The position numbers and the translations under genes are program-made. Shown here in pieces: positions 15,877 through 43,404 of a stretch of DNA of 43,404 nt; within the stretch, counting starts at the first letter, position 1, and each line of letters starts with the position of its first letter. The stretch is from a virus (lineage: Duplodnaviria > Heunggongvirae > Uroviricota > Caudoviricetes), in the IMG/VR virus record IMGVR_UViG_3300012662_000013, positions 1 to 43,404 of that record; one strand, written 5' to 3'. The notes under the pieces were generated by a model, which saw only the letters and a list, made by a program, of their open reading frames with translations, did no database searches and was not told where the DNA came from.

Positions 15877-16941
15877 TTGATAAAATTAGATTATACTCTT
15901 GAAACTCCTGAAGAACGAAATGAATTAGTAAAAAAAATTTTAGAGGAAAATCCAAATCCTAATGAAAAGTATTTAGAAATCCTCGCAGATTATCTAATTC
16001 TATGTATGGAGAAACAAGAAAAAAAAGAAAAGAAAATATTAACTGATAATAGATTAATGACAGTTAATAAGCGTGAAACTTCTTTTGAGGGTCTTGTTTC
16101 CTAGTTAGAGAATGGTGAAGATGGTATATATAATTTAATTAATAGTGATAAAAATATGATATTTTAGCCAAAAGTTACAATTACAAAAAAAGATTTAGAA
16201 GAAATTCCTAGCTTAAAACAATTAAAAGATGCTATTACAACTTGGGAAGCAAAAATGAAAGTAGTGAGTGGCAAAGATGCTTTCACTATAAAAAGAGCCT
16301 TGATAGAAATGCGCAAAGACCAATATGTTATTAAAAATGCTTATCGAAAGCCAATAGTGCCGGTTAAACTTACTCGGTCTAAATATAAAATTAGACTAGA
16401 CGAAGATGTAAAAGTATTTGATGATGATGGATATCCAATTCCAGAAGGCGTCTCATTAATGAATCCTGAAATTTGCTCTTGCATCTTATGTAATTATTCA
16501 CGATTAAAAGAAGATAGTTGGGACCGTTTTGAAGATGATACTTGGTATCTTATCTATGATTTTGAAAACACTTGCGATGAAGCTTTGGCTGAGTATCCTA
16601 TGTTAATGCGTATTGTAGAATGTAAAATTGATGGATTGCAAAATGTAGAAATCCAAAAAGTATTACAAGAAGAATTTAATATTACTCATAGCTTAGAATA
16701 TATATCTAGTTTATTCCGTAATAAAATTCCAAAGCTTATTGCCGATAAAGCTGTTGATAAATATTTAGAGTGGTATTATACAACACAAGAAAAAGGTAAG
16801 TATAAAAAATGCAGTCGATGCGGGCAAATAAAGTTAGCCCATAACAAGTATTTCTCTTTAAATAAAACAAGTAAAGATGGATTTTATAGTATTTGTAAAA
16901 AATGTCGAAATAGTTCTCGTAAAGAAAAAATGAAATCCTAA
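15877..16941 (+). CDS. putative DNA-binding protein with HTH-like segment and C-terminal C4 zinc finger, 354 aa (2 TAG)
   Basis: GGAGG RBS then TTG. TAG read-through joins track ORFs 15676-16104 and 16255-16941. CSRC...CKKC motif. Confidence 0.75.
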
Positions 16942-16959
16942 TGAAAGGAGAAATATTTA

Positions 16960-18174
16960 TTGTCTAGCGAAGGTAAACAATATTATTGTGAAAAATGTAA
17001 TAAAACTATGGATGGAACTTAGTTTTATACATCAAATAATTTAGATAAGTATCCTAACGATGGCAAATTACCCCAATGCAAAAAATGTATTACAATGCAT
17101 GTGGATAATTGGAAACCAGATACTTATTTATGGATATTGCAAGAATGTGACGTTCCCTACATCCCTGATTAGTGGAATTAGTTAATGGGTAAATTTGCTA
17201 AGGATAGAGCGAAAGTTACTGGAATGACAATTTTAGGTCGCTATCTCTCAGCAATGAAATTAAATCAATGGAAAGATTATAGATGGAAAGATAGTCAATT
17301 CTTACAAGATTTACAAAATAAAAAAATAGAAGAGACAATGAAGCAATAGGGCTATGATGTATAGGATATAGCTACTGCTATTCAACGTGCTTCATTTGCT
17401 TTACCGACAGAAGAACTTAAAGAGCCACCGGCTCCTACTCCTCCCTCTCTAGATTTTGGGAATCAACAAGAAGATTATTTTAAAGATAAATTGGATTTTG
17501 ATATACCTGACCTAGGGGCAGAATTGACTGACGAAGATAAACGATATTTATATTTAAAATGGGGTAAAGGCTATAGTCCAGATGAATGGGTTCGCTTAGA
17601 GCAACTGTTTAATGAAATGATGTAGTCTTATGATATTTAGTCAGCAGGCCATATTGATACATTAAAACTTGCTTGCAAGACATCATTAAAATCTAATCAA
17701 TTATTAGACATAGGTGATGTAGACGGCGCTCAAAAGATGATTAAAATGTATGATTCTTTAATGAAGTCTGGCAAATTCACAGCTGCCCAAAATAAAGAAG
17801 AATCTGGTGATTTCGTTGATTCTGTTGGTGAATTAATAGAAATGTGTGAGAAACAAGGTTATATTGAAAGATATTATATTGATTCTCCAAATGATAAAGT
17901 AGATTTTACAATTAAAGATATGCAGAAATATACCCGTACTTTAATTGAACGAGAAACTAATCTTGGCAATATGATTGATTAGGCATTAAAACAAAACGCT
18001 AAAGAAGATGAAGAAGCCAAAGAAAACGTCGAAGATACAATTGTTGATGATGTTGATATGTCTATTGAAGATATCGAAAAAACTTTGGAAGATAAAGATA
18101 TTGAAGACTTTAGTGAATTTTTAGATAACGAGACAGAGTTAGATATAGATGCTTTCTCTGATAGAGAAGATTAA
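16960..18174 (+). CDS. putative terminase small subunit / Zn-finger protein, 404 aa (8 TAG)
   Basis: AAGGAG RBS then TTG. N-terminal CEKC...CKKC. TAATG overlap with terL. Function inferred from position only. Confidence 0.6.
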
Positions 18175-19925
18175 TGGCATTACAAGATTTACTTGACTTA
18201 TCTACTAGTCGGAAAAAGATAGGTCTTTCTGAAGAACGTATTAATGCTGTAATGCCTATTATTCGTAAATATACTGCCTTTTGGCGTGAATATCCAGATT
18301 TATTTGTAGATTTTTTAGTGCGAGGAACGCGTACAGAGCCAAAAGAGGGAGAATTTAGATTCTTCTTTTATTAGCGTGTGTTCCTACGATGTGTAATGCG
18401 TTATCAATATGTTTACGCAGTTTTCCCTCGTGCTTATTCTAAATCATTCTTATCAGTTATGGCTTTAATGGTTAGATGTATTCTTTATCCTGGAGTTCAC
18501 TTATTTGTTACTTCTGGTGGTAAGGAATAGGGTGCTAGTATTTTGCATGATAAAGTTAATGAACTTTGTGATTTAATACCTAGCTTCAGGCGTGAAATTG
18601 ACTGGGGCCGTGGTAAGAGCCAAGAGAGTAAAGATAAAGTACGCTATGTATTTAAAAATGGCTCTGTTCTTGATAACTTAGCTGCTAGAGAAAGCACTCG
18701 TGGTCAGCGTCGTCATGGTGGCTTGATGGAAGAATGTGTAGGTATTGATGATTAGATTTTGCGTGAAGTCATTATACCAGTTATGGCAATTCCTCGTAGA
18801 GCTAAAGATGGTACAACCCATGAAGAAGAAGCAGTTAATAAATCTCAGATTTATATCACTACTGCTGGTTATAAGAATACTTATCCTTATGATAGACTAA
18901 TTGGTTTATTGGTTCGTATGATTACTTAGCCTGATAGATGTATGGTATTAGGCGGGACTTGGCGAACTCCTGTAGCTGTTGGCTTACAATAGAAAACATT
19001 CATTACTGACCAAAAGAATGAAGGAACTTATAATGAAGCTTCTTTTGAGCGTGAATATGAATCTATTTGGTCTGGTACTGTTGAAGATGCGTTCTTTAAT
19101 GCGGAAATATTTAATAGAAATAGAATATTGAATTAGCCTGAATATGAGGCTTCTGGCCGTTCAAGTAAATTATCTTATTATATATTAAGTGTTGACGTAG
19201 GCCGTAAAGGATGCGATACTGTTGTTTGTGTATTTAAAGTAACGCCGTAGCCGCATGGTGAACCAATTAAGAGTTTAGTTAATATTTATACTATGAATGA
19301 TACTCATTTTGAAGATTAGGCTATTAAGCTTAAAAAATTATATTATAAATATAAAGCTCGTAGAATTGTAATAGATGCTAATGGTTTGGGCGTTGGCTTA
19401 GTAGATTTTATGGTTAAGCCTTAGATCAATCCTGAAACTTCTGAAGTAATTCCTGATTTTGGAGTTTATGGTGGAACTTAGGATGATGCGGTTTAGGAAT
19501 ATAAAAAATATAAAACCAATAGTACAGAATTAGACGTTTTATATTTGATGAAAGCTAATGCACCAATTAATACAGAAGCACACAGTATTACTTAGTCAGT
19601 ATTAAATTCTGGCAAGATCAAATTTTTAATTGATGAACGAACTGCTAAATAGAAATTATTAACTACTAAAGTAGGTTAGAATATGACTACTGAAGCTCGT
19701 TCTGATTATTTAAGACCTTTTAGTTTAACCACTTCATTGCGTGAAGAGATTATGAATTTGCGTGAAGAGAATGAAGGTTTAAATATTATTTTAAAACAAG
19801 CTAATAAAAGTATTAAAAAAGATAAATTCTCTGCATTAGAATATGGTTTATATTATATAAAAAAAGTAGAAGAAGATAAAAAGAAGAAAAAATTCCGGGC
19901 TGCTGATTGGATGTTTATGAATTAA
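18174..19925 (+). CDS. terL: terminase large subunit, 583 aa (14 TAG)
   Basis: Adenine-binding YQR (Q encoded by TAG), Walker A-like FPRAYSKS, Walker B LMEE, coupling motif ITTAG, RuvC-like SVDVG...IVIDANG...DKFSA. Confidence 0.9.
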
Positions 19926-19934
19926 GCCGGGCAA

Positions 19935-19978
19935 CTCTTATTATTCTTTTAAATTAATTTTTAAAAGAATAATAAGAG
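19935..19978. repeat. perfect 19-bp inverted repeat with a 6-nt loop
   Basis: CTCTTATTATTCTTTTAAA-TTAATT-TTTAAAAGAATAATAAGAG. Confidence 0.85.
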
Positions 19979-20014
19979 GAATTTATTTGTAGATAAAGAA
20001 AGGAGACTTAATAT

Positions 20015-20371
20015 ATGGATGCCAGTCGTGCGGAAATTAAGATTAGAGAAATCTTAGAAGAAGCCGGCCTGAATTTTAAAATGGAATATATTTTCCCAGA
20101 TTTAAAAACACATAATGGTCGTCCTTTGCGTTTTGATTTTGTTATATTTGATGATGATAATAATATTGATTTTTTAATTGAATATCAAGGTAAACAACAT
20201 TATGAAGCCAGTAATAAATTTGGTGGTAAACGTGGTTTATACCAGTAGCAATATAATGATAATCAAAAACGTAGATTCTGTGCTTTACACGATTTACATT
20301 TAATAGAAATTCCTTATACAGAAGAAAATTTAATTTCTTACGATTATATAATGCGAAAGGCTGGATATTAA
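20015..20371 (+). CDS. PD-(D/E)xK / Vsr-like endonuclease, 118 aa (1 TAG)
   Basis: RFDFVIF...LIEYQGKQH...D..KR.FC...LIEIPY pattern. AAGGAG RBS. Confidence 0.7.
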
Positions 20372-20388
20372 TTGAAAGAAGGTGAAGT

Positions 20389-22083
20389 ATGGAATTAGAA
20401 AAAGAAGAATTAACCAGAAATGAATAGATACATAAAAAAGGTTTTGATATAACTGGAGGAACACGAGAGTATTCTGCGGTTGGTCCTAGTGAATATAAAA
20501 AGATTAAAGTTGGCGTTAAGACATTAGATGATGCAGTTTTAAATCTTGGTTCATTCAGATGGGATACATATGGTCGTCGTAATGAAAAATATAGCCGTGA
20601 GCGCATTTATACTAAACCTATGGTTATGGATGCTTTGATTCGTAATGATATTCCAGAGCTGCGAAGAATATCACGCTTCTTTTTTAGAGTAAGTGGTATT
20701 TATCAAAGAGTATGTAATTACTTTGCAAATATGTATCGTTATGATTGGGCTATTGCTATTTAGTCTAATAATACTGATGGCTCAACCGTCAAAGATATTA
20801 ATGAGACAAAGGCAGTAAAAGATTTCTGGCGAATTTTAAATTATTTAGATAATTCTTATATTAAGAAGATTTGCGGCGATATGGCTCTTGAAGTTATTAA
20901 ATGTGGAGCTTATTACGCTTATATCGTTCCATCTAGCACTGGATTAGTTTTATAGCAACTTCCTATTGACTATTGCCGTTCTAGATATTCAGTAGGTAAT
21001 TTGCCTGCTATTGAATTTGATATGAGATATTTTGATACTTTTGTAGATACTAATTATCGTAATAGAGTATTAAAATTATTCCCTGATGAATTTACAGTAG
21101 GTTATCGTCTTTATAGGGCCGGTAAACTTTTGCCTGATGTAGCTGGTGATAATAGCGGTAGCTGGTATTTATTAGACCCGCAGAGTACTATTAAATTTGC
21201 TTTAAACGGCACTAATGATATTCCATTATTTGTAAATGCTATTCCAGCGATTTTAGATTTGGATGCCGCACAAGATTTAGACCGTCGCAAGCAAATGCAA
21301 AAATTATTAAAGATTTTAGTTTAGAAATTACCGCTTGACAAAAATGGTGATTTAATCTTTGATATTGATGAAGCTCGCGATATACATAATAATGCTGTTG
21401 AAATGCTTCGTAGAGCAGTGGGTGTTGATGTATTAACTACTTTTGCAGATGTAGAAGCAATTGATACATCTGATAAGAACACTTCTACAACCACTGATGA
21501 ATTAGAGCGTGTTGAGCGAACTGTGTATAATGCTTTTGGTGTTTCACGCAATTTGTTTAATACGGATGGTAATATTGCATTAGAAAAATCTATTTTAGAT
21601 GATGAATCTACTATGCGTAATTTAATTTTGCAATTCAACATATTTTTTGATAGAATATTATCAGTCCTAAATGTTTAGAAAAAATATAATTATAAGTTCT
21701 ATATGTTAGAAACTACACAATATAATTATAAAGATTTGTCTAAGATGTATAAAGAGCAAACTTAGATTGGTTTCTCTAAAATGCTACCTTAGATTGCTCT
21801 TGGACAATCACAGAGTTTTATTCTTAATACAGCTCATTTTGAAAATGAAGTTCTACATTTAAGTGAAGTTATGATACCGCCTCTTATGAGTTCTACTCTG
21901 AACGGTGAAGATATTTTGGGTAAAAAAGATTAGAATAGTTCTAGCACTTCTCAAAATAAAACAAGTGGAAATTCTACCACTACTACTGTGAAAACGGAAA
22001 CTAAAGAGAGCGGCCGGCCAGAAAAAGCTAACGACGAAAAGAGCGAAAAAACAATTGCTAATCGTCAAGCGGCTGGTAAATAA
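20389..22083 (+). CDS. portal protein, 564 aa (8 TAG)
   Basis: Lies between terL and the protease. Size fits. Low-complexity C-terminal tail with GRP. Frame free of TAA/TGA. Confidence 0.75.
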
Positions 22084-22095: not shown

Positions 22096-23658
22096 GTGAG
22101 ACATACAAGTGTTAAGTTAGATACTCCTGTTGAGTTTATTAATATCACTAAAATCAATCCTTTAATTTCTAAATGTTAGATTAAAGTTTGTTATGTTGGT
22201 GATAAACCAAATCGCAATAGAAGTGTTATAACAAAAGAAGTTGCTAAAGATTTAGCGTAGAGTTTGCCGGGTAGTCCTATTGTTGGCTACTTTAATGAAG
22301 CCAATGGGGATTATGAAGAACATAATCGTGTAATTGATATTTCTAATGGCAAATTTGATATAAAAGATACTACTGTTCCTTACGGTTTTGTAGATTTAGG
22401 AGCGAAAGTATGGTTTTAGAAATTTTTAGATGATGGAAAAAACGAGCATGAATATTTAATGACTGAAGGCTATATCTGGACAGATATTTATCCAGAAAGC
22501 AAACGTATTATTGAAAAAGGTAATAATCAATCTATGGAATTAGATGATGAAAAAATTAATGCGTATTGGTCGAAAGATAAGAATGGAATGCCCGAATTTT
22601 TTATTATAAATGAAGCGATAATTAAGAAACTTTGTATTCTTGGAGAAGATTGTGAACCTTGCTTTGAAGGAGCTAATATTACTGCACCTACAATGCATTT
22701 CTCATTTAGTGATAAATTTAATGAGCAATTATTCTCTATGATGAAAGATTTAAAAGAATTATTAGAAGGTAAAGGAGGAACAAAAGTGTTCACAAGATAC
22801 AATGTGGAGATTGGTGATTCCATTTGGACTTCTCTTTATTCTTACATTAAGGGCTTCGGTGCTGGTAATGCAGTGATTGAAGAAGTTTGCGAAGACAATG
22901 GTAATTTATTTGCTGTTGTTAAGGAAGATGACAAGTTCGTTCGTTTAGATTTTTCTATGGAAAATGATACTTTCACTCCTGGCGAAGTTTCTGAATTAAC
23001 TGATTATTCTGTTTCTGAGAACCCTCAATTCGATTCTGAAAAAGTCGCAGAATTTGCGAAAAAAAAGGACGAAAAAGATAAAGACAATAAAGAGAATAAT
23101 GATAATAATAAGGAAGATTCTTCTGACGATAAATCAAAAGATGACGAAAAGAAGGATACTTCTGAAGATAAACCTGCTGATACTTCTGACAAAGAAGAGA
23201 AGCCAGCTAAGGATGATGAAGAAGAAAAGAAGAAAAAGAAAGCTAAGTATTCTTTAGAAGACGTAGTTGAATATGGTTTATTAAAAGATGAGTATGCAGC
23301 TCTTGAAACTAAGTATAATGAATTAGTTGAAAAGCAATCGCAACTTGAACAAGAACTTGCTTCTTTAACCCAGTTTAAGACTGAGGCTGAAAGAGAAAAG
23401 AAGCAAGAGATGATTAATAGTTTCTATATGTTATCTGATGATGATAAGAAAGATGTTGTTGCCAATATTGATACTTATTCATTAGATGATATTGAAGCAA
23501 AGCTTTCTATTATTTGTGTTCGCAATAAGGTCAATTTCGATACTAATGTAAATAAAGAAAATGACCCACTTACATATAATATTAATAATGATGTAAATGA
23601 AGATAGCATTCCTGCTTGGATTAAGGCAGTATAGGATGTTGCGAAAACTATGGAATAA
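22096..23658 (+). CDS. prohead protease fused to an acidic coiled-coil scaffold, 520 aa (4 TAG)
   Basis: AAGGAGG RBS then GTG. Globular N-terminal domain (NRNRS, PIVG, E..H, SME motifs), a K/D/E-rich linker, a coiled coil and a PAWIKAV terminal helix. Confidence 0.7.
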
Positions 23659-23682: not shown

Positions 23683-24459
23683 ATGCTTTTAAAAGATATG
23701 CTTAAAGACCTAAGCGGCGTATCTGCTGTTAAGGGCGGTTACGTTGAATATGGCTATGGTCAGGTTGAGCCTAATCATTTAAGTGCTCAGCGCACTGGTC
23801 AGATTTATGCTCAGTTACCTGCTAATAAAAATATCCAGCTTCTTGAAAATGGCCAGTTTGTTAAGTATGACTATGCTGCTGGTGAGCTTGGTGAAGTTGA
23901 TTTCACTGGCAAGGGCGAATGGATGTTAGTTTATAATGAGATTAAACTTTATCGTGAGGAACAGGCCGATTGCGAATTTGCTATGCGCAAGGACGATTAT
24001 TAGGCTCGTTACTACAGCCCATATGATGGCAAGCAGGAGATTGGCACGCGTCAGGCTCGTTACCTAAACGGCAAGGATGCTGCTGGTAATACTTCTATAA
24101 CTATTAAGGATAGCCAGGGTGTAGAACATACTTATGAATATGATGATGTTACTGCTGGTCCTGATATCCGTGAACTCTTCTATGAAGAAGATCCTTTACA
24201 TTTCGATGGTCCTTATGAGGCCCGCAGAATGCCTGCTGGCACTAATATGGTTCCTCGTGTTTTAAAGACCAATGTTGGTGATATTTTTACGACTAATACT
24301 ATTGCTGAAGCTACTCTTGTAGTTGGCGATATTTTAAGCCCTCGTGCTACTGACGGTATGCTTTCTAAGTCTGGTGATGGCTCTATCCAGTGGTAGGTTG
24401 TTAAGGTTTATGAAATGCCTGACCATCAGAAGGGCGTTAAGATTATGCGAATCGCGTAA
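23683..24459 (+). CDS. head structural protein, decoration-like, 258 aa (2 TAG)
   Basis: AAGGAGG RBS. Sits between scaffold and capsid genes. Frame continues past TAG 24001 to TAA 24457. Confidence 0.6.
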
Positions 24460-24476: not shown

Positions 24477-25613
24477 ATGTTAGATAGAAAAAATCTTGTT
24501 CAATTAATGAAGACTGTCGCTAAGGCTGATCCTTCTACTCCTACTGCTTACAGCTTTAATGGCGAAAGCCTTTCTTATGATGCTCTTAATGAAACTCTCC
24601 GCAGAGAATTAAATGAACTTGCTGGAACTTATTCTCTATATCGTGATAATAAGAACCTTATTTTCTCAATGATTGAGGAAACTATTGATGAAGTTCTTCC
24701 TAAGAAAGTTGAAGAGCAATATAATCAGTTTGCTGAAGTTAAGACTTTCAAGCAGGGTGACAAGCCCATCTTCCGCAGAAAGTTCAGCAATAATACTCGT
24801 GCAAAGCAATTCATTACCCGTGTCGGCCTAGCTGGTATCTATGAAGTATTCAAGCTTGGTAAGACCGAAGAAAGCTTTGAAGTCCGTACAAGTGCTATCG
24901 GCGGAGCTGCTCAAATTGGCTTTGAAGAGTTCCTTGATGGCCGTGTCGATTTTGGTACTGTCACCCAGATCGTTATGGAAGGTATGGACGAGCTTATCTA
25001 TAAAGAGATTGCTGGTGCATTAAAGGCCTCTATTAACCAGTTACCTCCTGCTAATCGTGTTGTTGGTAATGGTTTTGATGAACCCGCGTTTGATAAGTTA
25101 CTTATGATTGCTTCTGCTTATGGTACTCCTACTATTTATTGCACATATGAATTTGCTGTTCGTATGATTCCGAAGGATGCTTGGCGTTATACTGAAGCTA
25201 TGAAGAATGAGCTTTGGAACACTGGCCGTCTTGCTTCTTATAAGGGTTATAAAGTTGTTATCCTTGAGCAGGGATTCGAAGATGCTACCAATGAAAAGAA
25301 GGTCATTGACCCAGGTTATGCTTGGATTATTCCTACTGGTGCTGATAGTAAGCCTGTAAAGGTTGCTATGGAAGGCAATACCATTGTTGATGAATATACT
25401 AATTATGACCGCAGCCGTGAAATTCAGGTTTATAAGAAGGTTGGCGTTATTGCTATGTTAGCTAATAACATCTGCTGCTACTGTGATACCGAACTTCTTG
25501 GCGATATGAAGACTTGGCATCTTGATGGTGTAACTGGTAAGGTCCGTGATTATGCTGGCCAGATTACTGGTTCTCACGACACTATTGATGGCGGAAATGA
25601 AGATACTCCGTAA
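24477..25613 (+). CDS. major capsid protein, 378 aa (0 TAG)
   Basis: Position and size, highly expressed codon style, AAGGAG RBS, strong terminator downstream. Confidence 0.8.
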   Translation: MLDRKNLVQLMKTVAKADPSTPTAYSFNGESLSYDALNETLRRELNELAGTYSLYRDNKNLIFSMIEETIDEVLPKKVEEQYNQFAEVKTFKQGDKPIFRRKFSNNTRAKQFITRVGLAGIYEVFKLGKTEESFEVRTSAIGGAAQIGFEEFLDGRVDFGTVTQIVMEGMDELIYKEIAGALKASINQLPPANRVVGNGFDEPAFDKLLMIASAYGTPTIYCTYEFAVRMIPKDAWRYTEAMKNELWNTGRLASYKGYKVVILEQGFEDATNEKKVIDPGYAWIIPTGADSKPVKVAMEGNTIVDEYTNYDRSREIQVYKKVGVIAMLANNICCYCDTELLGDMKTWHLDGVTGKVRDYAGQITGSHDTIDGGNEDTP

Positions 25614-25711: not shown

Positions 25712-26278
25712 ATGAATAAAAAGATTTTGTTAGTTACTAACAGAAGTGCTGGGATGGTTGTTTATAATATTCCAGAAGAGGGCATCCGTAGAGAATTTAT
25801 GCCTGGTGAAACTAAGAAGATTCCTTTTGAAGAGTTAGAGAAGCTTGCCTATCTTAGCGGTGGCCGCACTTTAATGGAAAATTTCTTAAAAATTGTAGAT
25901 ACTGAAACTACACAAGAGTTAGGTATTCATACAGAACCCGAATATTATTTAGATGATGCTGGAGTTATTAAGCTTCTTACTGAAGGAACGCTTGATGAGT
26001 TCCTTGATTGTCTCGATTTCGCTCCTATTGGAGTTATTGATATGATTAAGAGCTATGCTGTCTCTCTTCCTATGAGCGATTATAATAAGCGTAAGGCTCT
26101 TAAAGATAAGACTGGATTTGACCTTGATAGAGCATTAGCTAATAAGGAAGCTGAAGCTGCTGAGGATGAGCAGATTACTCCAAAGGCACCTGAACGTAGA
26201 GTAAAGACTGAAACTAAGTCTACAATGCCTCCTGGCCGCAGAACTGCTCCTCGTTATAATGTTGTAAAAGAAGGTTAA
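25712..26278 (+). CDS. conserved-looking head-associated hypothetical protein, 188 aa (0 TAG)
   Basis: AAAGGAG RBS. Immediately after the capsid gene. Confidence 0.75.
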   Translation: MNKKILLVTNRSAGMVVYNIPEEGIRREFMPGETKKIPFEELEKLAYLSGGRTLMENFLKIVDTETTQELGIHTEPEYYLDDAGVIKLLTEGTLDEFLDCLDFAPIGVIDMIKSYAVSLPMSDYNKRKALKDKTGFDLDRALANKEAEAAEDEQITPKAPERRVKTETKSTMPPGRRTAPRYNVVKEG

Positions 26279-26300: not shown

Positions 26301-26912
26301 ATGACATATTTTTATAAAGTTTATGAACGCTTTTTAGGTAAAGTAACAGATGATATGTATTTAGAACTTACTCCTCGTGATACATTTTTAGATTTACGCC
26401 AATTACTTGTTGATAGTATTCCTGGATTTGAATTTCCACGTAAACGATTAGACTATGTTTTAGTTGATGAAGATGCTCCTGATTTTATAAAAGGAGAGAT
26501 TGATGGCGGAGATATTGACATTCCACTGGGCGGAGATTTATCTGAAGAAGTAACTGGTAGTAATATTGATATAGATAATGCTTTTTAGGAGATATTTTCT
26601 GAGGAAAATACCTCCTATTTTAATGCCGATTTAGATGATGAAGAAATAAATATCTTAGCTTTGATTATGGTTGAAGCCTGGGTAGAGCGTCAATTGGCAT
26701 CTATTGAAGTAACTAGAATGAAGTATTCTGGCACAGATTTTAAATTTACTTCATAGGCAAACCATATGTCAAAATTGTTATCATTGAGAACAGAAGTAAG
26801 ACGTTAGGCATTTCATATGCAAAGATTATATAAGCGTCGTAAAACTGATGATAATGGATATATTAAATCCAATTGGTCTATCTTAAGGGAGGTAAGCGCC
26901 CTTGATGACTAA
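26301..26912 (+). CDS. putative head-tail adaptor, 203 aa (3 TAG)
   Basis: AAGGAGG RBS. Frame open to TAA 26910. Function inferred from synteny. Confidence 0.6.
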
Positions 26913-27198
26913 ATATAATTTTAATATTGATAATAGTTTAATTAATACCAATATTAATAGATTAACTAACTAGATATGGAAATTAATTCCTATGAAAGAA
27001 AATGAAGAAGATTGGTTATCTTAGTTAAATACTGTAATTATTGAATTAACTGGTCTTGGAGAAATTTTTAATGATAGTTAGTATTTAATTCTTTTAAGTA
27101 AATTAGAAGGATTAAAAGGTACTGAAATGGAATTTCCTATTTATAGAAAGACGGTGTTTGAAGCTATCACTCTATTAAGGGGGCTTCACATTGAATAA
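26905..27198 (+). CDS. hypothetical neck-region protein, 97 aa (3 TAG)
   Basis: GGAGG RBS. Overlaps both neighbours. Invisible in the standard code. Confidence 0.7.
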
Positions 27199-28186
27199 GA
27201 ATGAATATTTAGATGCGATGTATAATCGTATTCCAAAAGCTAATATGCTTACAAGATATTTATACGGCGGTGGAGTAACAGGTCAATAGGATAGAATGAT
27301 AAGAGATAAACGTAAAAGTTTAAGTAGAGCTTTACTTTACTCTTATTAGGCGGCACAAGTTAAAAAATTATATGATAATAACGATAATATTGAACGTCGT
27401 GCATTAATTAATCCTGATAAACTTAAATAGGATTATGATGAAAAAATTATTTCCATTGGATTTGAAAGTAATTTTAAGACTGGCGATATTTTTCAATGGC
27501 TCGGTACTAATACTTATTGGTTAATTTATTTATAGGATTTAACTGAATTAGCTTATTTCCGCGGCAATATAAGACGTTGTTCTTATGAAATTGCTTGGGA
27601 AGATGAAGATAAGAATTACCATAAAACTTATGTGGCCTTACGTGGTCCCGTTGAAACTAAAATAAATTATATTCAAAAACATGAAATCAGTATAGACACT
27701 CCTAACCATTCTTTAAATATATTGTTACCTTATAATGATGATAATGTAAAATTATGTTAGCGTTATAATAAATTTTATTTATAGAATGACCCTAATAAAA
27801 CGTGCTGGCGTATTGAAGCTACTGACTTATATTCTACTCCTGGAATAATTGAGATTAATGCAGTTGAATATTATTCTAATGAAACTGCTGACGATGTTGA
27901 TAATGGTATTGTTGGCGGTTTAATAGAGCCAATTCAAGACCCTAATGAAGGTAAAGAAAATGGTATAATTGGAGATACCTTTATTAAACCAAAAATAGTG
28001 TATGAGTATAAATATGATGGAATTAAATCTGGCAAATGGACTTGGGATAAAAAATTACCATTAACAGTTAAAGTTGATGAAGAATCAAAAACTTTAAAAC
28101 TACGATGGGAAACTACTTATTGCGGATAGTTTGATTTATTCTATGGGCCAGAATGTAAAACCATTGTAGTAGAATCTTTATTTTAA
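27191..28186 (+). CDS. putative head-closure/neck protein, 331 aa (7 TAG)
   Basis: AGGGGG RBS then TTG. No TAA/TGA in frame. Function inferred from synteny. Confidence 0.6.
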
Positions 28187-30709: not shown

Positions 30710-30711
30710 TT

Positions 30712-32395: not shown

Positions 32396-32923
32396 ATGGC
32401 AAAGTTATCATTTACCAAGCTCGCACTTCAAAAAAACTCTTAGGTAAAAGATTGGAGTTTTAACGAGTAGCTTATTGAAGTAAAACAATATCTACCTATT
32501 AAAGAGCGAATGGATATTGCTTAGACGGTCATTCAACAAGTCATTGATTTTAATAATGAATTTTTGAATGAATTTGCTTTCCATATGTATATGGATTTAG
32601 CAATAGTATTTAATTATACAAATCTATCTTTTACCGATAAGCAGAAGGAAGACTTGTATAAGCTTTATGATTTATTTGTCGGTTCTGGATTTATGAAAGA
32701 GCTGAAGAAACAAGTAGATTGTAATCAAACTGATGATTTAGAAGTCTATACTTATGAAACGCTTAATGGATATTATAAGTATCGTAATAGTGTTTATGGC
32801 ATTATGGATATTATGGGTTCCGACTACGGTTCATTAGCTACAGAAGCTGAATCATTAAGAAAATCTATTTCTGACCCCGATAGCTTAAATGTCTTAAAAG
32901 AGACTTTAACCAATTTAGGATAA
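32396..32923 (+). CDS. putative tail assembly chaperone, 175 aa (3 TAG)
   Basis: AAGGAGG RBS then ATG at 32396. Directly upstream of the tape measure gene. Confidence 0.6.
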
Positions 32924-32997: not shown

Positions 32998-33034
32998 ATT
33001 ATATAAATAGGAATTGAGAGAAAGGAGAAAACAT

Positions 33035-36000
33035 ATGGCTAATAATAGTGCCCAATATGATGTAAGACTTGCCTTTTCAGCAGATGTAGCTTAGGCAAGA
33101 TAGCAATTAAAAAGTTTACAAGATGAATTAAGTAAACTTAGTACATTGAAAGATGTAAGTGTTGGAACTCGTTTAACGAAAGAGTTAGAATAGGCTTCTT
33201 TAAAAGCGGCTGATTTAAAAGTAATGCTTGAAAAGGCAACTGATATTAATACAGGCAAGTTAAATCTAACTTCTTTCTCTAATTAGCTAACTAAAAATGG
33301 AGAAAGCCTATCTACTTATAGGAAAGCATTAAGTGCTCTAGGTCCTCAAGGTGAAGAAGCTTTTTTACAATTAACATAGAGTGTAATTACTGCTGATGCG
33401 GCTTTAACTACAGGTAGTAAGAAATTAAATGAATTTAAAAAGACTTTAGCCAATACAGTAAAATGGCAAATTTCTTCTAATATTACTCATGGTATTGTGG
33501 GAGAACTTTAGACTGCCTATTATTATGCTAAAGATTTAGATAGGGCTTTAACTGATATCAAAATTGTTACAGAAGATAGTGCTGGCTCTATGGCCGATTT
33601 TGCCTAGAAAGCTAATAAAGCAGCTTAGTCTTTAAGTACTACTACTAAAGATTATGCTTAGGCTTCTTTAATTTACTATCAGTAGGGTTTAAGTGATAAA
33701 GAAGTAGAAGCAAGAACGGCGGTTACTATTAAAATGGCAAATGCTGCTGGTGAAAGTGCATCTAAAGTGTCTGATTAGCTAACGGCTGTTTGGAATAACT
33801 TCTATGATGGTAGTAAATCTCTTGAGTATTATGCTGATGTAATGACAAAACTTGGCGCTTATACTGCCTCTAGCACTGATGAAATTTCAGAAGGTATTTA
33901 GAAATTCGCTTCTGTAGCTAATACAATTGGTCTTAGTTATGAATATGCGACATCTGCCTTAGCTACTTTAACAGCGAAAACACGTGAAAGTGCTAACGTA
34001 GTAGGTAATAGTCTTAAGACCCTTTTTGCACGTATTTAGGGTTTATCTCTTGGAGAAACTCTAGAAGATGGTACTGATTTAAATAAATATTCTACAGCTT
34101 TGGCAAAAGCTGGTATTGATATTAAAGATTAGAATGGCGAGTTAAGAGATATGAATTCTATCCTTGATGAAATGATGAACAAATGGGATGGAATGAGCCG
34201 TGCCCAGTAGGTAGCATTAGCTCAAACTGTAGCGGGTGTGCGTCAATATACTTAGCTTATTAATCTTATGGAAAATAAGGATTATTTTAAAGAGTTAGTT
34301 GGAGTAGCGGAAAATTCTGAAGGAACGTTATAGATATAGGCAGATATATTTGCTGATAGTTGGGAAGGTGCTCGAAAAAGAGTTCAGGCTGCTGCTGAAG
34401 GCATTTATGATAGCTTAATTGATGAAGAGTTTTTTAAAGATGTTGATAATGTTGTTACTGTAGTATTAAATGGTATTAATGCTACCATTAAAGGATTAGG
34501 TGGAGTTAAAGGAGTAGTATCTAATATTAGCGCTTTAATTTTAAATATATATAAAAAAGATATTACTAGCGGATTAAATAATTTTGGAACAATGTTAAAA
34601 AATCTAACTCCATAGGGTTAGGCTTCTATAGAAGCTCGTAGACAAGAAGCTTTAGAGCAATAGAAAAAATTATATACTGGAGGCATTACTCCTAGTGAAT
34701 TAAATTCTTGGGAAACTGCAAGTTATCAAGATGATGCTAGATATGAAAAATATACTAAATTAGCGGAAGTTGAATAGTAGATTTTAAATATTTCTAAAGA
34801 TTTAACAGAAGAAGAAAAAAAATAGGCTGGATTGTATTTAGATATATTGAATGCTGCTTCTGATAGAAAAGTTCTTACTAGCTAGCAAGTTGATCAAGCT
34901 AAAGAGCAATATCAAACTATAGCCTCTTCATTAATTCATTCTTTGCGTTTAGCAGGAGCTGGAGATAGAGATGTTACAGAAGTTATTAGAAAAAATAATA
35001 ATTATTTAAATGCAGCGAGTATAGCTTATTCATCTAATACTATCAGTAAAGTTGATGAAAAATCTCCTTTCGATACAGTATTACAATCTTCAAAAATAAA
35101 AGATATTGAAAATCTACAAAAAATGATTAATGATCTATAGAATTTTAATGATTTTGATTTTGCAAGATTTAATGAAGATGCTTTTATAGGAATAAAAACA
35201 TCTTTAGATGAATTAATAACTAAATTAAAAAATGGTACAGCAACAGCTAAGGAATTTAATAAAGTCTTAGAAGATACTGGTAAATTTACTATGACAGCTG
35301 CTTTTGGATAGAGAGAACAAATAGATCCAAAAACTGGTAATATTACCTAGTCAGCCATTCCAGGGGCTAGACAAGAAGTCCAAGAACAAATGGAAATAGC
35401 TACAGTATATACAGAAGCTACTGGTCCTGCTTAGCAATTAGCTTAGGCTACATAGGGTCTTAATGTAGCTATGGAAAGATAGATTAAAACTAGCAATGAA
35501 GTTAAAGCCAGTGAAGAAGGAACTACTGAAGCAGTAAAAAAATTAGGAAATAGTACTGTTGAAGCTAGCGATAAAATAGTAGCTTTTAGTACTTCAGCTA
35601 TGAATATAGCTGGAATTTTTAACTCGCTTTAGGGAGTTGTTAACATTTGGTCTAATGATAATTTATCAGGATGGGAAAAAATTTTAGGGACATTAACTAG
35701 CCTAGGGATTCTTTTACCTAATTTAGTAAGTTTAGGTAAAGCTATGACTATAATAACTCAAAAAATTACAGTTGCTAAAACTCAAGAAGCTGCTGCTCAT
35801 ACTCTTAATGGAAATGCGATACAAGCTGAAGGGGAATAGGCTAAATTAGCTAATAAAAATTTTTCTATATTAGGTAAATCAATGAGTGGTATTAGTGCTG
35901 CGGCGGGTTGGATTAGCATTGCTTTAACTGCTTTAACACTTATTATTTCAGCTGTATCAGCTGCGATTGAAGAAGCTAAAGAAAAACGAGCTGAATTTGC

Positions 36001-39000
36001 ATAGACTACTAAAGAAACTTATGAATAGACTAAATAGGAAATAGAAGAAAATGAAAAACTTGTTACTTCTTATCAAGAATTATTAGAAACTTATAAAAAA
36101 ACTGGCGAAGGAAAAACAGATTTAGTAAATACTTCAATAGAATTAATTGATGTATTTGATATAGAAAATGGTAGTTTATTATTATTATAGGGAAATTATG
36201 AAGAATTAACCAAACGTATTTTGGAAGCTAAATAGGCTAAAGATACATTAGCTATTGGTGAGGCTAAAGCAGCTTATTTTGCAGCAAATGATACAGTTAA
36301 GGATGAGTTAGGTAGTACTTTTGGTTCTTATTGGGATATTGCTAGTGAAAATGCTGGAGATAATCAAGGATCTCGTTTATAGATTGCTCATATAGCTGGT
36401 TCAGATTATGATATTATGTAGCAATATTTAAATTCTGTAGAAGGCTCTTCTAATTGGACTGTTAAAAATTTCCAAGGGAATGGAGCTTTTGATATTGCTA
36501 ATGTAATAGATTTTTATGATAATGCTAATACAAATATGTAGTAGTTTAGCGAGTGGGCTTAGAAAGAAACATCTAATGGAGGATTAGGTTGGTCTGAAGA
36601 ATAGGTTAATGAATATCTAGAAGAAAGTCGTACTAGCTTAGCTTCTATAAAAACTTTGGTTGATGGATGGAAAGATATTCAAAATGATACTAATTTAGCT
36701 ATTTTAAATGCTTCAATGAATGAATATGATGAAACTAAAGTTAAAGATTTGCCTTCTTATTTAAAATAGAGAGAAGTATTCACTAATCAGAAAGACGATT
36801 TAGAAGTTGGATATACTTCTAACCCTGATGAAATTATTACTAGCTTTTTAGGAACAAATTCTAAAACTTCTGATTATGAAACTCTTCTTAATGGATTACA
36901 ATCTTGGTATGATTAGTATTCTTCATTTTTACCGAATTTTGAAGAAATTATAAATAGTGGATTAACTGACGAAGAATTAAAAGTATTAGTCAATATCGAT
37001 CCTAGAATAACCGGTGGTTCTTTAGAAGATTTACAAAATTAGATATAGAAATATTTAAAAACTCATCCGGTAGATATATCTGCCGATATTAAAGCAGGTA
37101 AAAAGGCTTTAAAAGAAGATATGTCTGGAAAAAATGATTGGAAAGATTTTTGGGAAGCTACCAGTAATATCACTTGGGGGAAAAATGGTATTGTTAGTTA
37201 GGCTGATTTTTAGGGAATGCAATATGGTCAATAGCAGAAATACCTTAATGAATTATATTCTCAAAATGCCTAGACTTTTTCTCCTGAAGAAAGAATAGCT
37301 AGAGCTACTGAAGAAAATGCTGAGTTAGAATAGCAAATAAATAATTTAAAAGGTTTATCAGATGAATAGGTAACCGAATTACAAAGAGGCAATTTAACAG
37401 AGAAACAAAATTAGGCTTATGATGATTTTTCTAATTATGAAACTTAGATAAATAATTTATTAGAAGCTTATAAAAATTCTGATAATTATGGAAAATATAA
37501 CGATAGCTCTTGGTATGAAGATATGCTTTTCTCTAACACAGCTTTTAATAATCCAGGGATGTATGATAATTGGATTAATACCTTGATTGCTAGAATAGGA
37601 GGTACTCCTGAAAATTTCATAAAACCTGAAGTAACTACAGAGAATAATTTAATTGAAGGACGAGATACCAAAAGAAATTTAGAGAATTAGAGACAAGGGT
37701 TTTAGGAAGATAATATTACATAGTTAGAAAAAGAGCAAGCAGAAAATACTAGAGAATTATAGAATGCTTTAATAGATTATAATACTGAAATATCAAGAAC
37801 AATACAGAATTTAGCCAATACTGATTTAAAAATTGGAGATATTATTTAGCCTGAATAGGTTGAAGCTTTAAAAGCTATTGGCATAAATTTAGATGATTAT
37901 TTCATTCCAATGGAAGATGGTACTTATAAATTAATTACTGCTGCTGAAGAATTTAATAGAATCGTTGGTAAGGCTAGCATCTAGAATGCTTATAATGGTG
38001 CTGATATCATTATTCAAAATTTATAGGATAGTGGGCATTTTTTAAAAACTAATGGTTTATCAGATAAAGAAATTCGAGAACAAGCAAGAGTTTAGGCAGA
38101 AGATATTATTGATAATTAGGGACAGACTAACTGGAGTGAAGAACGTAAATAGGCTTATTTAGATGCAGCTAAAGTAGATTCTACTTAGTTTGATAGTATA
38201 GATGAGGCAATGGTTGAAGCAGCTTAGCGGCTTAAAAAAGAAATTGAAAATGGAGATTATATCATTGATGTTACCATTAAAAATGCTAATTCTATGTCTG
38301 AATTAGAAAATTTAGCTAAAGAGGCTGGATGGAATAAAACTGATAAAGAATATACTGATGCTATTTTAAATTATCAAGCTGAAAATGGTAATAGCTTAGG
38401 CCGTGATGAAGCTATAGCTGTTCAACGAGATTCTTAGAATAAATAGGCTGCTGATGAAGCTTTAGCAGAAGCTTAGAAATAGGAAAATAAAGCTAGAGAA
38501 GCTGTATATAATGCTACAGGAAATGATTCTCGTGGAATATCAAATCGAGTATTAGCAGAAGAAGAATTAGAAAAGGCAATAAATAAAAGAGTTGAAGCTG
38601 AAACAAAAGTTAAAGAGGCTGATGATAAATTAGCTAATTCAACAGAAACTTTGAGTAAAAAAATGAAAAAAGTTGATTTTACAGAAACTGTTAAAAATTT
38701 AAAGGAATATGCAGATAAATTAAAATCAGCGGGAAAAGGTACTGAAGAATATGAATAGTCTCTTAACGGTATGGCGGAAGAACTTTAGAATGCTTTTGGC
38801 GGAAATTTTGACGCAGAAATAGTTAAAAAACATCAAAATTTGATTAATAAATTAATAAATGGTACAGCTTAGGCTAGACGAGATGCAGCTGCTCAACTTT
38901 CTATAATAGGTCAAGACAGTAAATTTAAAACTAATATGGAATAGGCTTTTGAAGGAGCAGAAGAGGAAGTGCAAACTAAAGTAAATGAAATTACTTCTGC

Positions 39001-42000
39001 TTTTAGCACTATGACCAATGGTTTAAGTTTTAATGTCGATGGTAGTATTACTATGGATAGCCAATAGGCTATTGCTTAGGTTGGTGCTTTAATTGGATAG
39101 ATGGATAATCTTGAAGCCGCAGCAACATTAGGTGGTAGCTTCTTAAGAGCTTTGTTAGACAGTAATATCGAATTTGATGCTTCCTCTATGGAAAAATTGG
39201 AAAATATGCTAATAGTCTTTGCTAAAGTCCAAAATGGTGAAAATGTAGATGTTAGCGAAGTCAAAAATGCGTTTAAAGATTTAGGGGATATTGGATTATT
39301 TGCTTCCGGTAAAGCCATTGATGTTCCTCCTTATAATATGGCTAATAAAAGTGGTGGAGGAGGAAGTAAGTCTAAAAAATCTGCTGCTGATATTGGTAAA
39401 GAAATTCAAGATGAAAAATTAAAAACTTATGAAAAGAAACGTGAATTGTTAGAAGCTAAGCGTGATGGAGCTAATCCAGAAGATGCTGCTAAATATATCC
39501 AAGAAGAAATTGATTTACTTAAAGAAGAGCAAGATATTCTTGAAGATTAGATTAAATCTTGGAAAGAATTATTAAAAGTTAAAGTTCAAGAATTTAATAA
39601 AGAACATCCAGAGTTTGAAATTAAACTTACTGATGATGGCGAGATTGCTAATGCTTCTGAATTATGGGGTTAGGTTTGGGCTTAGTATCAAAAGAATCTT
39701 GAAGATGGCATGAGTGAAGAAGAACTTAATGAATGGTTCACTAAAATTAAAGACGCTCTTGATGGTCCTATGGGTATCCAATAGAACATTGATGAAAACG
39801 TTGCTCTTATCGCTTAGAAAGAAAAAGAAGCTGCTGAACTTGAACTTGAGTCAATTACAAAAGCTATTGACTGGAAAGTTAAACAGATTGATTTTTAGAT
39901 TAAACGTCTTAATTACTATCAAGAAAAACTTCTTAAATAGGCTCACGGTAATAAACAAACTATTGAAGCAATGCTTGAAGGGTTTGCTTACCAAGAGCAA
40001 GAAATGTTATAGCTCTTTGACAAAGGTGCTACATTACGTTAGGGTATTGATTAGTTAAATGCCGCGAAAGCTAAGTATCCAGGTTATGAACAAATGTTCG
40101 ATGAATAGATACTTGAATATCAAAGTGATTTGATAGATGTTAATGAAGCTATTCTAGACTTGCGTAATGATATTGAAGATTTAGTTTAGAATGTTCTAGA
40201 CTTGGCACTTGATGAAATTGATAAGTAGATAGAACGTCTTGATACTTATACATCAATGCTTGACCATCTCAATAATATTATTGATTTGTCTGGTCGCTCA
40301 ATGCTTGATATGGGATTAAAAACTTAGATTGGCGCTACTAAGGTAGAAACAATGTTAGGTAAAATGAAATCCTTAAAAGCCCAGATGGATGGCTTAACTA
40401 AAGCGACTAAAGAAGCAGAGGCGGCCCTTGCTGACCGTTAGGCTGATGGCGATACCTCTTCTGTTAAATTCTGGGAGAATCAAGTTGAGGTCTTAAAACA
40501 AGAGACTGAGAAGGCTTCTGAAGAATTCTTAGCGTCTTGGGAAGAAACTCTTGAAGCCGCTCAAGATTTATTTGAAATGCGTGTTGAAATGGCTGTTGCA
40601 GTATTAAGTAATGCCTTATCACCATTTGAAACTCTTGAAGATTTCTAGGATAAATATGAAAAGGCAAAAACCATCAATGAAGAGTACCTTGATGATGCTG
40701 AACGTCTATATGAGTTGAATAAGTTAAATCGTTAGCTAAATTTATAGCTGGCTGATGCTAATGACCTTTTAGCGAAACAAAAACTTAGAGACCTTCAGCA
40801 AGAGATTCACGATCTTCAGGCCGATGGTGTCCAGATGAGCCAATATGATCTTGAGTATTTACAAAAGAAATATGATTTACAACTTGCTGAAATTGCTCTT
40901 ATGGAACAGCAAAACTCAAAGACTTCAATGCGTTTAGTGCGTGATGCCGCAGGTAACTGGACTTACGCTTATGATGCTGATGAAGAAAAGATTGAAGATG
41001 CTACATAGAAATATGAAGATGCTGTCCATGAGTTAGATTAGCTAAGTAAAGATTATATTAATGATGTGAGTGAATAGTTGATTTAGAATTAGATTGATTT
41101 TAAAGAAGCTTTACAAGACCTTGATAAGAATTCTGCTGATTATTCTAATTAGCTATTATCATTATAGGAATATTATGTTGAAAGACAAAGATATTTACTT
41201 GATGAATTAAATAAAGGTGTTGTAAATAGCGGATAGACTTTTCATGATACCCTTTACGGCCAAATGACTGATCTGTATGATTACAATGATGCTTATATGT
41301 TATTCGTTAATAATTCTAATGCTACTATAACTGAACTACAAACCAATTATAAAGATTGGCAAAAAGTTGTAGAAACTGCAATGAGTGTTGCTGGTACATC
41401 TTGGGATAACTTTGGTACTGATATGGGCGGCACTCTTGATAGCCTTGAAGAACATATTCAAAAATTATGTGATGAAATTGAGGAACTCGTTAATGTATTA
41501 ATGGGTTATATTTCTCAGTCTATTGGAATGGTCCTGGATTGGGAATAGAAATATTCTAAGCGTACTGATTAGGAACTTGCAGCCAATGAATCTTATATTG
41601 ATGGTAATTTTATTGGCAGTAGCAGTGGTGGAGGAAGTAGCAATGTAGATATGCAAACTGACTTTACTGCTTTAATACAGCGTTGGATGGCTGGTGAACG
41701 TGATTTAACTAACTGGGATAATTCTAAAACTTATAATAGTTTGGAAGAAATAAAAGCCGATTTAGGTAAAAAATTAGATGCTTTTGAAAATGGTGAAGAA
41801 ATACTTTTCTAGGGAAGTGGAGAATCATTTGACGAAGATGCTTATCAAACAGTTTATGATCATTTTTATAAAGGTTATGGAACTAACGGCGGAAGGTATG
41901 GATCTCTTTCTTATCCGAATACTTTTAGTAATAGTATTGTGGATAAAGCTGCTAATTACTTAGGAACAAAATATACCTATGGTGGTAAAGACGCGAGTAC

Positions 42001-42724
42001 TGGTTTAGATTGTTCTGGATTAGTATATAAAGCATTGAATGATGCTGGAGTTAATGTTCCTATATTAACGGCTGAAGGATATAAACAAATGGCTAAATCT
42101 ATTAGTTCTGCTAATATCAAACCTGGTGATTTAGTATTTTTTGGAGCTAATGGCGTGGCTGATCATGTAGGAATTTATATGGGCAATGGTTAGATGATAA
42201 ATGCTACGGGTACTAAGACTTAGATTACTAGTATAGATTCTAAAAAAGCTGGATTAATTGGTTATGGTCGTATAGGTAATAGTTATTCTTCTAGCGATAC
42301 TGCTGCTTTGATGGATAGACTTGGTTTATCTAGAAGAGGTGGAGCTGCTTCTGGAGCTTATACTGGTGATTGGGGTCCTGGTTAGGGTATAGGTATTGAT
42401 AATGGAAAAATTATTAAAGTCCATCCAAAAGAATTGATACTTAATAAATCTGATACTAGAAATATACTTCGTGCAGTTGATATTGTTCGTAATATGAATG
42501 ATTGGGTAGATAAACAAGTTTAGTAGTTATCTAATTTAAGTTCTTCAAAATTAGATAGCTTATATAATTCTGCTATCCCAAGATATGATACTCAACCAAT
42601 TAAGCAAGAAGTCACTATTCAAGCAGATTTCCCAGGAGTTACTGATCATTATGAAATTGAAGAAGCATTGTCTAATCTTAGCAATAATGCTGCTCAATAT
42701 ATAAGTGCGAATAAATCTAAATGA
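33035..42724 (+). CDS. tail tape measure protein with a C-terminal NlpC/P60 peptidoglycan endopeptidase, 3229 aa (about 115 TAG)
   Basis: GAAAGGAG RBS. 9690 nt with no in-frame TAA/TGA until TGA 42722. TP901-type N-terminal core, hydrophobic helices near 35.6-35.95 kb, long coiled coils. NlpC/P60 motifs YTYGG...LDCSGLV...PGDLVFF...HVGIY (about 41.93-42.27 kb). Confidence 0.9.
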
Positions 42725-42748
42725 GGAGGATTAATTTCCTCCTCATTT
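42719..42748 (+). terminator. hairpin at the end of the tape measure gene (weak U-tract)
   Basis: AAATGAGGAGGA/TCCTCCTCATTT stem. Confidence 0.55.
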
Positions 42749-42769
42749 AGAGGAGAGAAAGGAGTTAAT

Positions 42770-43404
42770 ATGGCTTATAATAGAAAAGAAGAATACTTAG
42801 CAGTAGTTAAACAACCAAAGCAAATTACTGATGAACTATTAGAAACCATTGATTATATCGCTCGGGCCCGTGATGCTGAATTATCATTTGATAAAACTAT
42901 AATTGCTGAAATTGTAAGTCTTAATAATGCTGATACTGGTGAATATTTTGTTGAATATCAAAAAGGTAAATTTAGAGCATACGTACCAGCTGGAACTACA
43001 TATACTTATTCTAAAGGAACTAATGTATATGTAAAAATTCCTGGTGGAGATTTTACTTAGAAAAAAACTATTGAGGGAAAAGTTTCTGCTTCTTCTTATA
43101 CAGAAGAAGAGTATGAAGATTTATCTCAATAGATTATTGAAGTAAATGAAATCCATAGCGATGGCAATGAATATGGTATTTTGGCATATGCGCCAGAAGA
43201 TAATACTTATTATGAAAAAGTAATTTATAGTAATGAAAAATTAGAAGACAATTCTATTTTTACAAGTTTAATCAGCACTTATCCAAATATTATGATTTCT
43301 GCTGATTTTAGGACTTAGTTTTATGGAACTATGGTGGCCGGCAATTATGGTTTAAAAGTAGAATTTGAAGAAAAAGATACTGGTGTTATTTTTACTCGTC
43401 GTTT
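42770..43404 (+). CDS. tail tip/baseplate-region protein, partial (3 TAG so far)
   Basis: AAAGGAG RBS. Frame open to the window end. Confidence 0.65.

Follow-up and report, generated by a model that had tools for sequence, protein, structure and literature searches.

Does the codon TAG end translation in the late genes of the tailed phage behind IMG/VR record IMGVR_UViG_3300012662_000013, or does it encode an amino acid, and if so, which one? The stretch analysed here (the window) is the left 43 kb of that record (positions 1 to 43,404); the whole record is linear, measures 107,404 bp and has a CheckV completeness estimate of 57%. A first-pass annotation had proposed that TAG is reassigned to glutamine throughout the morphogenesis module on the plus strand (15877-43404). 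Judging from frames and alignments, we conclude with high confidence that TAG acts as a sense codon for glutamine in these late genes.

Under code 11 the plus strand from approximately 15.7 kb to the end of the window falls apart into short open reading frames (ORFs), whereas reading TAG as sense yields an unbroken series of 20 back-to-back genes. The 18 larger plus-strand ORFs obtained in this way (15676/15877 to 43402) comprise 8,868 codons, among which are 205 in-frame TAGs and not a single internal TAA or TGA. Sixteen of them end in TAA, one in TGA and one is still open at the window end; TAG terminates none of the 17 that are complete. The other two frames of the same genes contain hundreds of TAA and TGA codons, so the open frames cannot be explained by chance. 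Coding density between 15676 and 43404 (greedy ORF cover) increases from 0.49 with table 11 to 0.98 with TAG as sense (table 15), against 0.53 for a control in which TGA was taken as sense. An AGGAGG-type ribosome-binding site precedes nearly all late genes, TAATG overlaps are found at two junctions (18174 and 28798), and the GC content of the late region is 32% versus 38% in the early (left) arm.

The earlier description of gap-free read-through genes with ribosome-binding sites, TAATG overlaps and TAA or TGA ends is thus borne out on the plus strand from 15877 to 43404. The same goes for the 9.7-kb frame said to hold about 115 TAGs: the ORF at 33014-42724 encodes 3,236 amino acids, carries 115 TAGs and no other in-frame stop before the TGA that ends it. 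The statement that every late gene is interrupted only by TAG stands in so far as TAG is the only stop found in frame, but "every" is too strong: the genes at 24477-25613 and 25712-26278 and a small ORF at 30712-30870 have no TAG, and the gene at 29612-30709 has a single one, 28 codons from its end. In total, four of the 20 late genes, including the probable major capsid gene, lack TAG.

The short ORFs under code 11 are also what one would see if the TAGs were real stops and the module consisted of decaying pseudogenes or split genes, or were an assembly artefact. The asymmetry between stop codons (205 TAGs in frame against zero TAA or TGA, with hundreds of the latter in the other frames) already refutes this. 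In addition, more than 70 related contigs show the same pattern, the sequence recurs in contigs from several runs, and the homologues in standard-code phages are unbroken. We therefore give this explanation practically no weight.

As to the amino acid, we placed an X at each TAG and aligned the products by tblastn to the morphogenesis regions (loci L001, L002, L003 and L006) of four cultured standard-code phages: Geobacillus E3, Enterococcus VRE9_4, Alicyclobacillus KKP_3916 and Brevibacillus Sundance. The homologous genes are single, unbroken ORFs in all four, rather than being split at the same positions. Glutamine is the residue most often aligned to a TAG (39 of 202 residues, 19.3%), followed by E, K, D, T and S. 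This is close to the 20.3% observed at true CAA/CAG columns, while other query residues align to glutamine in at most 7.1% of cases. With substitution frequencies taken from the same alignments, glutamine is the maximum-likelihood residue at TAG (log-likelihood -550.8), 30 ln units ahead of Glu (-580.7) and 50 ahead of Lys (-601.5), with Tyr (-730) and Trp (-762) far behind. Columns with a glutamine in every aligned standard-code phage include residues 67 (Y-TAG-R) and 382 of the large terminase subunit (TerL), both of which are Q in four of the four phages, and residue 205 encoded by the gene starting at 28798. The glutamine assignment had been derived from three motifs, all of which are indeed present: Y-TAG-R in TerL (residues 66-68), AQ-TAG-VALAQ in the tape measure protein (residues 397-404) and HVGIYMGNG-TAG-MI in its NlpC/P60 domain (residues 3051-3072). 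The TAG of the last motif (residue 3070) aligns to a glutamine of Escherichia coli MepS and of a Tn916-like hydrolase.

At the codon level, 63 of the window's TAG columns were compared in 80 IMG/VR relatives, which carry CAA (1,133 times), TAG (858), GAA (308) and CAG (307) at these positions; CAA is seen at 54 of the columns and CAG at 40. Codons that are a single step away from TAG and do not encode glutamine (TAT/TAC, TGG, TTG and TCG for Tyr, Trp, Leu and Ser) are not among the 25 commonest at these columns. Since CAA is two mutations away from TAG, this points to synonymous exchange, with drift through CAG. Both steps are found at the TerL TAG at 18372-18374 in contigs of other public runs: run X2 has CAA (T>C plus G>A) and run X6 has CAG (T>C alone). 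The codons of the 80 relatives are stronger evidence for glutamine than the residues of the standard-code phages.

A different amino acid (Glu, Lys, pyrrolysine, Trp or Tyr) is very improbable. E and K are next commonest after Q at the TAG columns, and ARAGORN labels the CUA-anticodon transfer RNAs (tRNAs) of the relatives "tRNA-Pyl", a label that follows from the anticodon alone. Nonetheless, the log-likelihoods, the CAA and CAG codons of the relatives (together with the scarcity of single-step alternatives) and the conserved glutamines at TerL residues 67 and 382 and at residue 205 of the 28798 product all favour glutamine. A pylT-type tRNA has a 6-bp anticodon stem, a very small D-loop and a 3-nt variable loop, and pyrrolysine decoding also takes pylS and pylBCD. 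The CUA tRNAs of the relatives are unlike pylT: they are ordinary cloverleaves with a 5-bp anticodon stem, a normal D-loop and a variable loop of 4-5 nt (pylS and pylBCD were not searched for).

How TAG is distributed over the genes can be seen from the features of the window:

15820-15848, plus strand: near-consensus sigma-70-type promoter (TTGACT, 17-nt spacer with TG, TATAAT) ahead of the first plus-strand gene
15877-16941, plus strand: gene with the PHROG label "sigma factor" (phrog_5767, E = 5e-53); two TAGs (16102-16104 and 16165-16167)
16960-18174, plus strand: YonG-like gene upstream of the terminase (phrog_3314); 8 TAGs
18174-19925, plus strand: large terminase subunit (TerL, YonF-like); 14 TAGs
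20015-20371, plus strand: homing endonuclease between terminase and portal, in the same place in Enterococcus phage VRE9_4; one TAG, aligned to Q
20389-22083, plus strand: portal protein (phrog_2739, E = 2e-75); 8 TAGs
22096-23658, plus strand: head-associated protein (phrog_3313); 4 TAGs
23683-24459, plus strand: scaffold-like protein, named by position only; 2 TAGs, 12 CAGs and no CAA
24477-25613, plus strand: probable major capsid protein (phrog_4088); no TAG, CAG preferred
25712-26278, plus strand: head protein (phrog_30998); no TAG
26301-26912, 26902-27198, 27191-28186, 28208-28798 and 28798-29532, plus strand: five head-tail connector or virion genes; 3, 3, 7, 4 and 9 TAGs, respectively
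29612-30709, plus strand: probable major tail protein (phrog_2729); one TAG (codon 338 of 365), CAG preferred
30712-30870, plus strand: small ORF; no TAG
30912-32282, plus strand: gene of 456 codons; 21 TAGs (4.6% of codons), the highest density among the genes of the window
32396-32923, plus strand: gene just before the tape measure (phrog_30570), by position probably a tail assembly chaperone; 3 TAGs
33014-42724, plus strand: tape measure protein with a C-terminal NlpC/P60 peptidase domain; 115 TAGs
42770-43404, plus strand: start of a tail gene of 1,072 codons that reaches 45988 in the full record; 20 TAGs overall
1-15765, minus strand: early arm of small genes behind 15 near-consensus sigma-70-type promoters; CAG more frequent than CAA

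Pfam and NCBIfam give almost no matches in the late genes apart from the tape measure domains, so PHROGs were needed for naming. The sigma-like protein has no match in Pfam, NCBIfam or (by sequence) the PDB, and because of the latter its label rests on one PHROG family name. Its gene likely starts with TTG at 15877, after a GGAGG; a longer ORF from 15676 lacks a ribosome-binding site. The TAG-rich gene at 30912-32282 matches no Pfam, PHROG or NCBIfam family, and Enterococcus phage VRE9_4 has different genes at the equivalent place.

TAG use is far from even. As a share of TAG, CAA and CAG together, TAG amounts to 46-47% in the plus-strand late genes, 20% in the minus-strand right arm (replication and nucleotide metabolism genes) and 12% in the minus-strand early arm (1-15.7 kb); in the virion module it has largely taken the place of CAG. 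The recoding, which had been placed in the morphogenesis module, is present there but also continues to 59.7 kb on the plus strand and occurs in many minus-strand genes out to 107 kb. Within the right arm, TAG is absent from the genes for ligase and topoisomerase, one of the two DNA polymerase pieces has its sole TAG two codons from its end, and RecJ has 11. Differences are also seen between neighbours in the virion module. Of the aligned relatives, 50 of 55 have no TAG in the probable capsid gene, 49 of 55 in the head gene (25712-26278), 45 of 54 in the scaffold-like gene and eight of eight in the major tail gene, while TAG makes up 16-50% of the glutamine-like codons in the genes next to these. 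In the present phage the same four genes prefer or retain CAG. The sigma-like gene has approximately three TAGs on average in the relatives.

The early arm also differs in its promoters. Near-consensus sigma-70 promoters (TTGACA, 17 nt, TATAAT, at least 11 of 12 matches) number 16 in the 15.9-kb left arm (15 on the minus strand and one facing right before the sigma-like gene) versus three in the 27.5-kb late module. The minus-strand promoter at 15765-15737 is a 12 of 12 consensus and faces the plus-strand promoter at 15820-15848. Such a pattern is typical of an early region read by the host RNA polymerase. The early-arm promoters appear as dispersed repeat families of 45-64 nt ahead of small genes, and the arm also contains a 38-nt unit in three tandem copies (14582-14695).

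These observations fit the published model of a phage tRNA(CUA), charging by the host and staged use of TAG. In this model the early arm, with its host-type promoters and almost without TAG, would be translatable in the standard code of the host. A phage-borne amber-suppressor tRNA (anticodon CUA), whose gene would lie in a tRNA cluster beyond the end of the fragment, would then read TAG; it would probably be charged with glutamine by the host aminoacylation system, as the record encodes no synthetase. Full-length TAG-rich products would be made only once the suppressor is present. The genes of the most abundant virion proteins (capsid, scaffold-like and major tail) avoid TAG, the probable reason being that suppression is limiting. 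For this phage the tRNA, its charging and the timing are what we infer. To the model as a whole, in which TAG is an ordinary glutamine codon of the late and many of the middle genes and would be read by a phage suppressor tRNA and used in stages, we assign a probability of about 0.85.

The suppressor itself has to be judged from relatives. We analysed the full records of five of these, four of which have 12-21 tRNA genes; the fifth, G005, has none. Relative G002, which is 91% identical at the nucleotide level over 16.5 kb of the late module, carries a tRNA(CUA) that adjoins a tRNA-Gln(UUG), a ROOL RNA and a RAGATH-33 RNA. Relative G004, the only one that is 100% complete, carries a tRNA(CUA) as well. 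Both are ordinary cloverleaves with an unpaired 1:72 position (U·U and U·C) and a G73 discriminator. E. coli GlnRS favours charging with glutamine on U35, G73 and a weak 1:72 pair. The tRNA(CUA) of G004 furthermore closely resembles the suppressor of phage phAss-1, which was typed as glutamine by Babkin et al. (PMC10607447). The right end of our record maps to approximately 63.9 kb of G002, and the tRNA cluster of G002 (44.5-50.5 kb) lies beyond it; the suppressor gene is thus plausibly located just off this fragment, as far as the comparison of the two genomes allows us to infer. Simple collinearity with G002 was rejected, as its 50-64 kb region did not match this genome.

Two side observations concern these tRNA clusters. 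The ROOL RNA of G002 is full-length (320 bits, L119:2978-3565) and, like the RAGATH-33 RNA (138 bits, L119:4797-4909), is situated in the cluster, no more than approximately 1 kb from the tRNA(CUA). In addition, some tRNA genes of G001, G003 and G004 (L117:1753-1901, L120:3787-3919 and L122:1678-1814) are 130-146 nt long and match the Rfam tRNA model end to end; ARAGORN puts insertions of 49-73 nt in their anticodon loops, at least one of which has a T-loop-like GTTCAAATC motif, and which are too short for group I introns.

Several results weigh against the proposed mechanism. The 107-kb record contains no tRNA gene (ARAGORN; Rfam tRNA model, E up to 10), no release-factor domain and no GlnRS or GluRS domain, so that the search for a CUA tRNA, GlnRS or release factor proposed in the first-pass annotation yielded nothing; given that the record is a fragment (57%), this says little. 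The tRNA(CUA) sequence of G002 was not found in four other close relatives, nor in G005, a record of 176.6 kb (92% complete) in which 4,412 aligned codons include 29 in-frame TAGs and which is without any tRNA gene. The base following sense TAGs shows no bias in comparison to CAA and CAG (+4 position, p=0.19), and hence nothing in the sequence points to competition with release factor 1. Finally, where two early genes end in TAG under code 11 (10773 and 14760), relatives have a sense codon or likewise TAG, and the alignment runs on past both positions.

The last point can be considered together with the other early genes. Four of these have a ribosome-binding site and end in TAG under code 11 (at 4461, 10309, 10773 and 14760). 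The TAG at 4461, which closes a gene for 204 amino acids on the minus strand (4461-5075), is probably a true stop, because a GC hairpin and a T-run directly follow it (within 4425-4463); read-through would add 11 residues. At 10309, the single relative that aligned has a TAA at the same place. Since 10773 and 14760 (two of the four candidates) align to sense codons, a strict use of TAG as stop in the early arm was rejected: from the mixed behaviour of these four TAGs the arm is poor in TAG, not strictly in the standard code.

The lack of a tRNA on the 107-kb record and G005 with its in-frame TAGs leave room for a route that is independent of a phage tRNA or is supplied by the host: TAG could be sense because of a suppressor encoded by the host, because it is a sense codon in the host's own code, or through some RNA or protein factor that has escaped recognition. 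Nonetheless, we consider this unlikely. A tRNA(CUA) is present both in G002 (the closest long relative, 91%) and in the complete G004, our fragment ends before the matching tRNA cluster, and the TAG-poor early arm suggests a start in a standard-code cell. Moreover, we know of no bacterium that reads TAG as glutamine. In favour of such a route, suppressor tRNAs were found in only approximately 40% of TAG-recoded genomes (Borges et al., bioRxiv 10.1101/2021.08.26.457843). A slightly better chance, though still a small one, is given to a statement on the lineage as a whole, namely that TAG decoding may not always need a phage suppressor tRNA, with a host-supplied or unrecognised factor in some members; a milder variant has the sigma-like gene (15877-16941) acting as a translational gate, as its host-type promoter and its two TAGs could make late transcription depend on the change of code.

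For annotation the consequences of TAG being read as glutamine are direct: the default code 11 loses half of the virion module to fragments, including the tape measure protein of 3,236 amino acids, and table 15 is needed. The implied novelty of the reassignment does not hold, as it has already been published for the phAss-1/EF1-like group (PMC10607447) and for large Firmicutes phage clades (bioRxiv 10.1101/2021.08.26.457843). What the present case adds to the published pattern is one more well-documented instance, accompanied by over 70 related contigs in IMG/VR: TAG is avoided in the early genes behind host-type promoters and in the core replisome, is relied upon by most virion genes, and is avoided once more in the genes of the most abundant virion proteins. 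This agrees with suppression being limiting and serving to time expression. The case raises no new question: who charges the suppressor, the fate of release factor 1, and how members without a detectable suppressor manage are already discussed in the literature.

The phage is a large, lytic-type siphophage from gut or sewage and belongs to the EF1/phAss-1-like, SPbeta-related group, with a full genome of probably 145-190 kb; records of relatives measure 114-158 kb at 96-97% TerL identity and up to 197 kb at approximately 76%. "SPbeta-like, Firmicutes-type siphophage", as it had been called, is a fair broad label given the YonF- and YonG-like homologues and a gene order as in Enterococcus phage VRE9_4. 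TerL is 47% identical to that of Geobacillus virus E3, 44% to EF1-like Enterococcus phages, 42% to phAss-1 and 35% to the YonF of Brevibacillus phage Sundance; the product of the gene upstream of TerL has 24% identity to that of the YonG-like gene of Sundance. The PHROG families between terminase and tape measure succeed each other exactly as in the EF1-like VRE9_4, with tblastn matches running gene by gene. Among public records, the nearest is MT836163, a contig of 12 kb without annotation, at 52-62% amino-acid identity.

Other codes occur in the same TerL clade (60-72% identity): loci L057, L059 and L073 seem to use code 4, as they have in-frame TGA (mostly where this phage has Trp) but no TAG, and L038, L039 and L076 seem to use code 11, as in-frame stops are absent from them. 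The record IMGVR_UViG_3300032167_000002 (402,311 bp; L014 and L046) contains two TerL genes of the clade (74% and 67% identical) approximately 200 kb apart and probably represents two phage genomes joined in assembly. Inference of the host from the GTDB metagenome-assembled genomes (MAGs) that hold relatives was abandoned: the labels (Mollicutes, Acutalibacteraceae, Clostridium, Bacilli, Lachnospiraceae, Treponema, Bacteroidales and Muribaculaceae) look like binning noise with a Bacillota majority. One of these, MAG CAMELE01 (uncultured Mollicutes; L128 and L135), has two contigs of the clade with TerL 97% and 77% identical, which may be a binning artefact or a hint to the host.

Among known systems, the crAss-like phages, whose code 15 has been validated by proteomics (Peters et al. 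2022, PMC9523058), share the TAG-to-glutamine change in late genes. They differ in being an unrelated, podovirus-like order that infects Bacteroidota. The cultured phages Enterococcus EF1, VRE9 and H1 and Geobacillus virus E3 are much closer: the PHROG order is the same (24618, 9084, 2739, then 35301, 4088, 30998, 3853, 31155, 6123, 4051, 2729, 30570, 34405) and TerL identity is 44-47%, but they use the standard code without in-frame TAG.

Borges et al. (bioRxiv 10.1101/2021.08.26.457843) described the general recoding pattern and the timing model, including large Firmicutes phage clades and a large "Agate" clade that mixes codes 11, 15 and 4. As in these clades, and Agate in particular, structural genes are recoded here and core replication genes keep to the standard code; lysis genes, in contrast, lie outside our window. 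Further similarities are the mixture of code 15, code 4 and code 11 members in one clade, genomes of approximately 150 kb, and homing endonucleases and introns. Their model, in which a suppressor tRNA charged by host enzymes delays the expression of late and lytic genes, is the same as the one proposed here.

A further close counterpart is phAss-1 together with its EF1-like relatives, phages of the human gut. Babkin et al. 2023 (PMC10607447) reported TAG-to-glutamine recoding with a tRNA-Sup-CTA in phAss-1 and in a number of phages from the monophyletic group to which Enterococcus phage EF1 also belongs, and compared this group with Spbetavirus. Members of the proposed genus Phassvirus share 80-86% nucleotide identity; the NCBI taxonomy line of phAss-1 reads "Caudoviricetes code 15 clade". 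Membership of Phassvirus was rejected for our phage, which resembles phAss-1 at the protein level only (37% amino-acid identity for portal and 42% for TerL). Other differences are the size of the close relatives (145-197 kb against 133-138 kb) and the tRNA count (none on this fragment against 36). Otherwise the patterns are similar: in both, TAG encodes glutamine in the TerL, portal, tape measure and tail genes but is largely missing from those for capsid and DNA polymerase, the tape measure exceeds 3,100 amino acids, the layout of terminase, structural, nucleotide-metabolism and replication genes is alike, and a tRNA-Sup-CTA is carried by some members and not by others.

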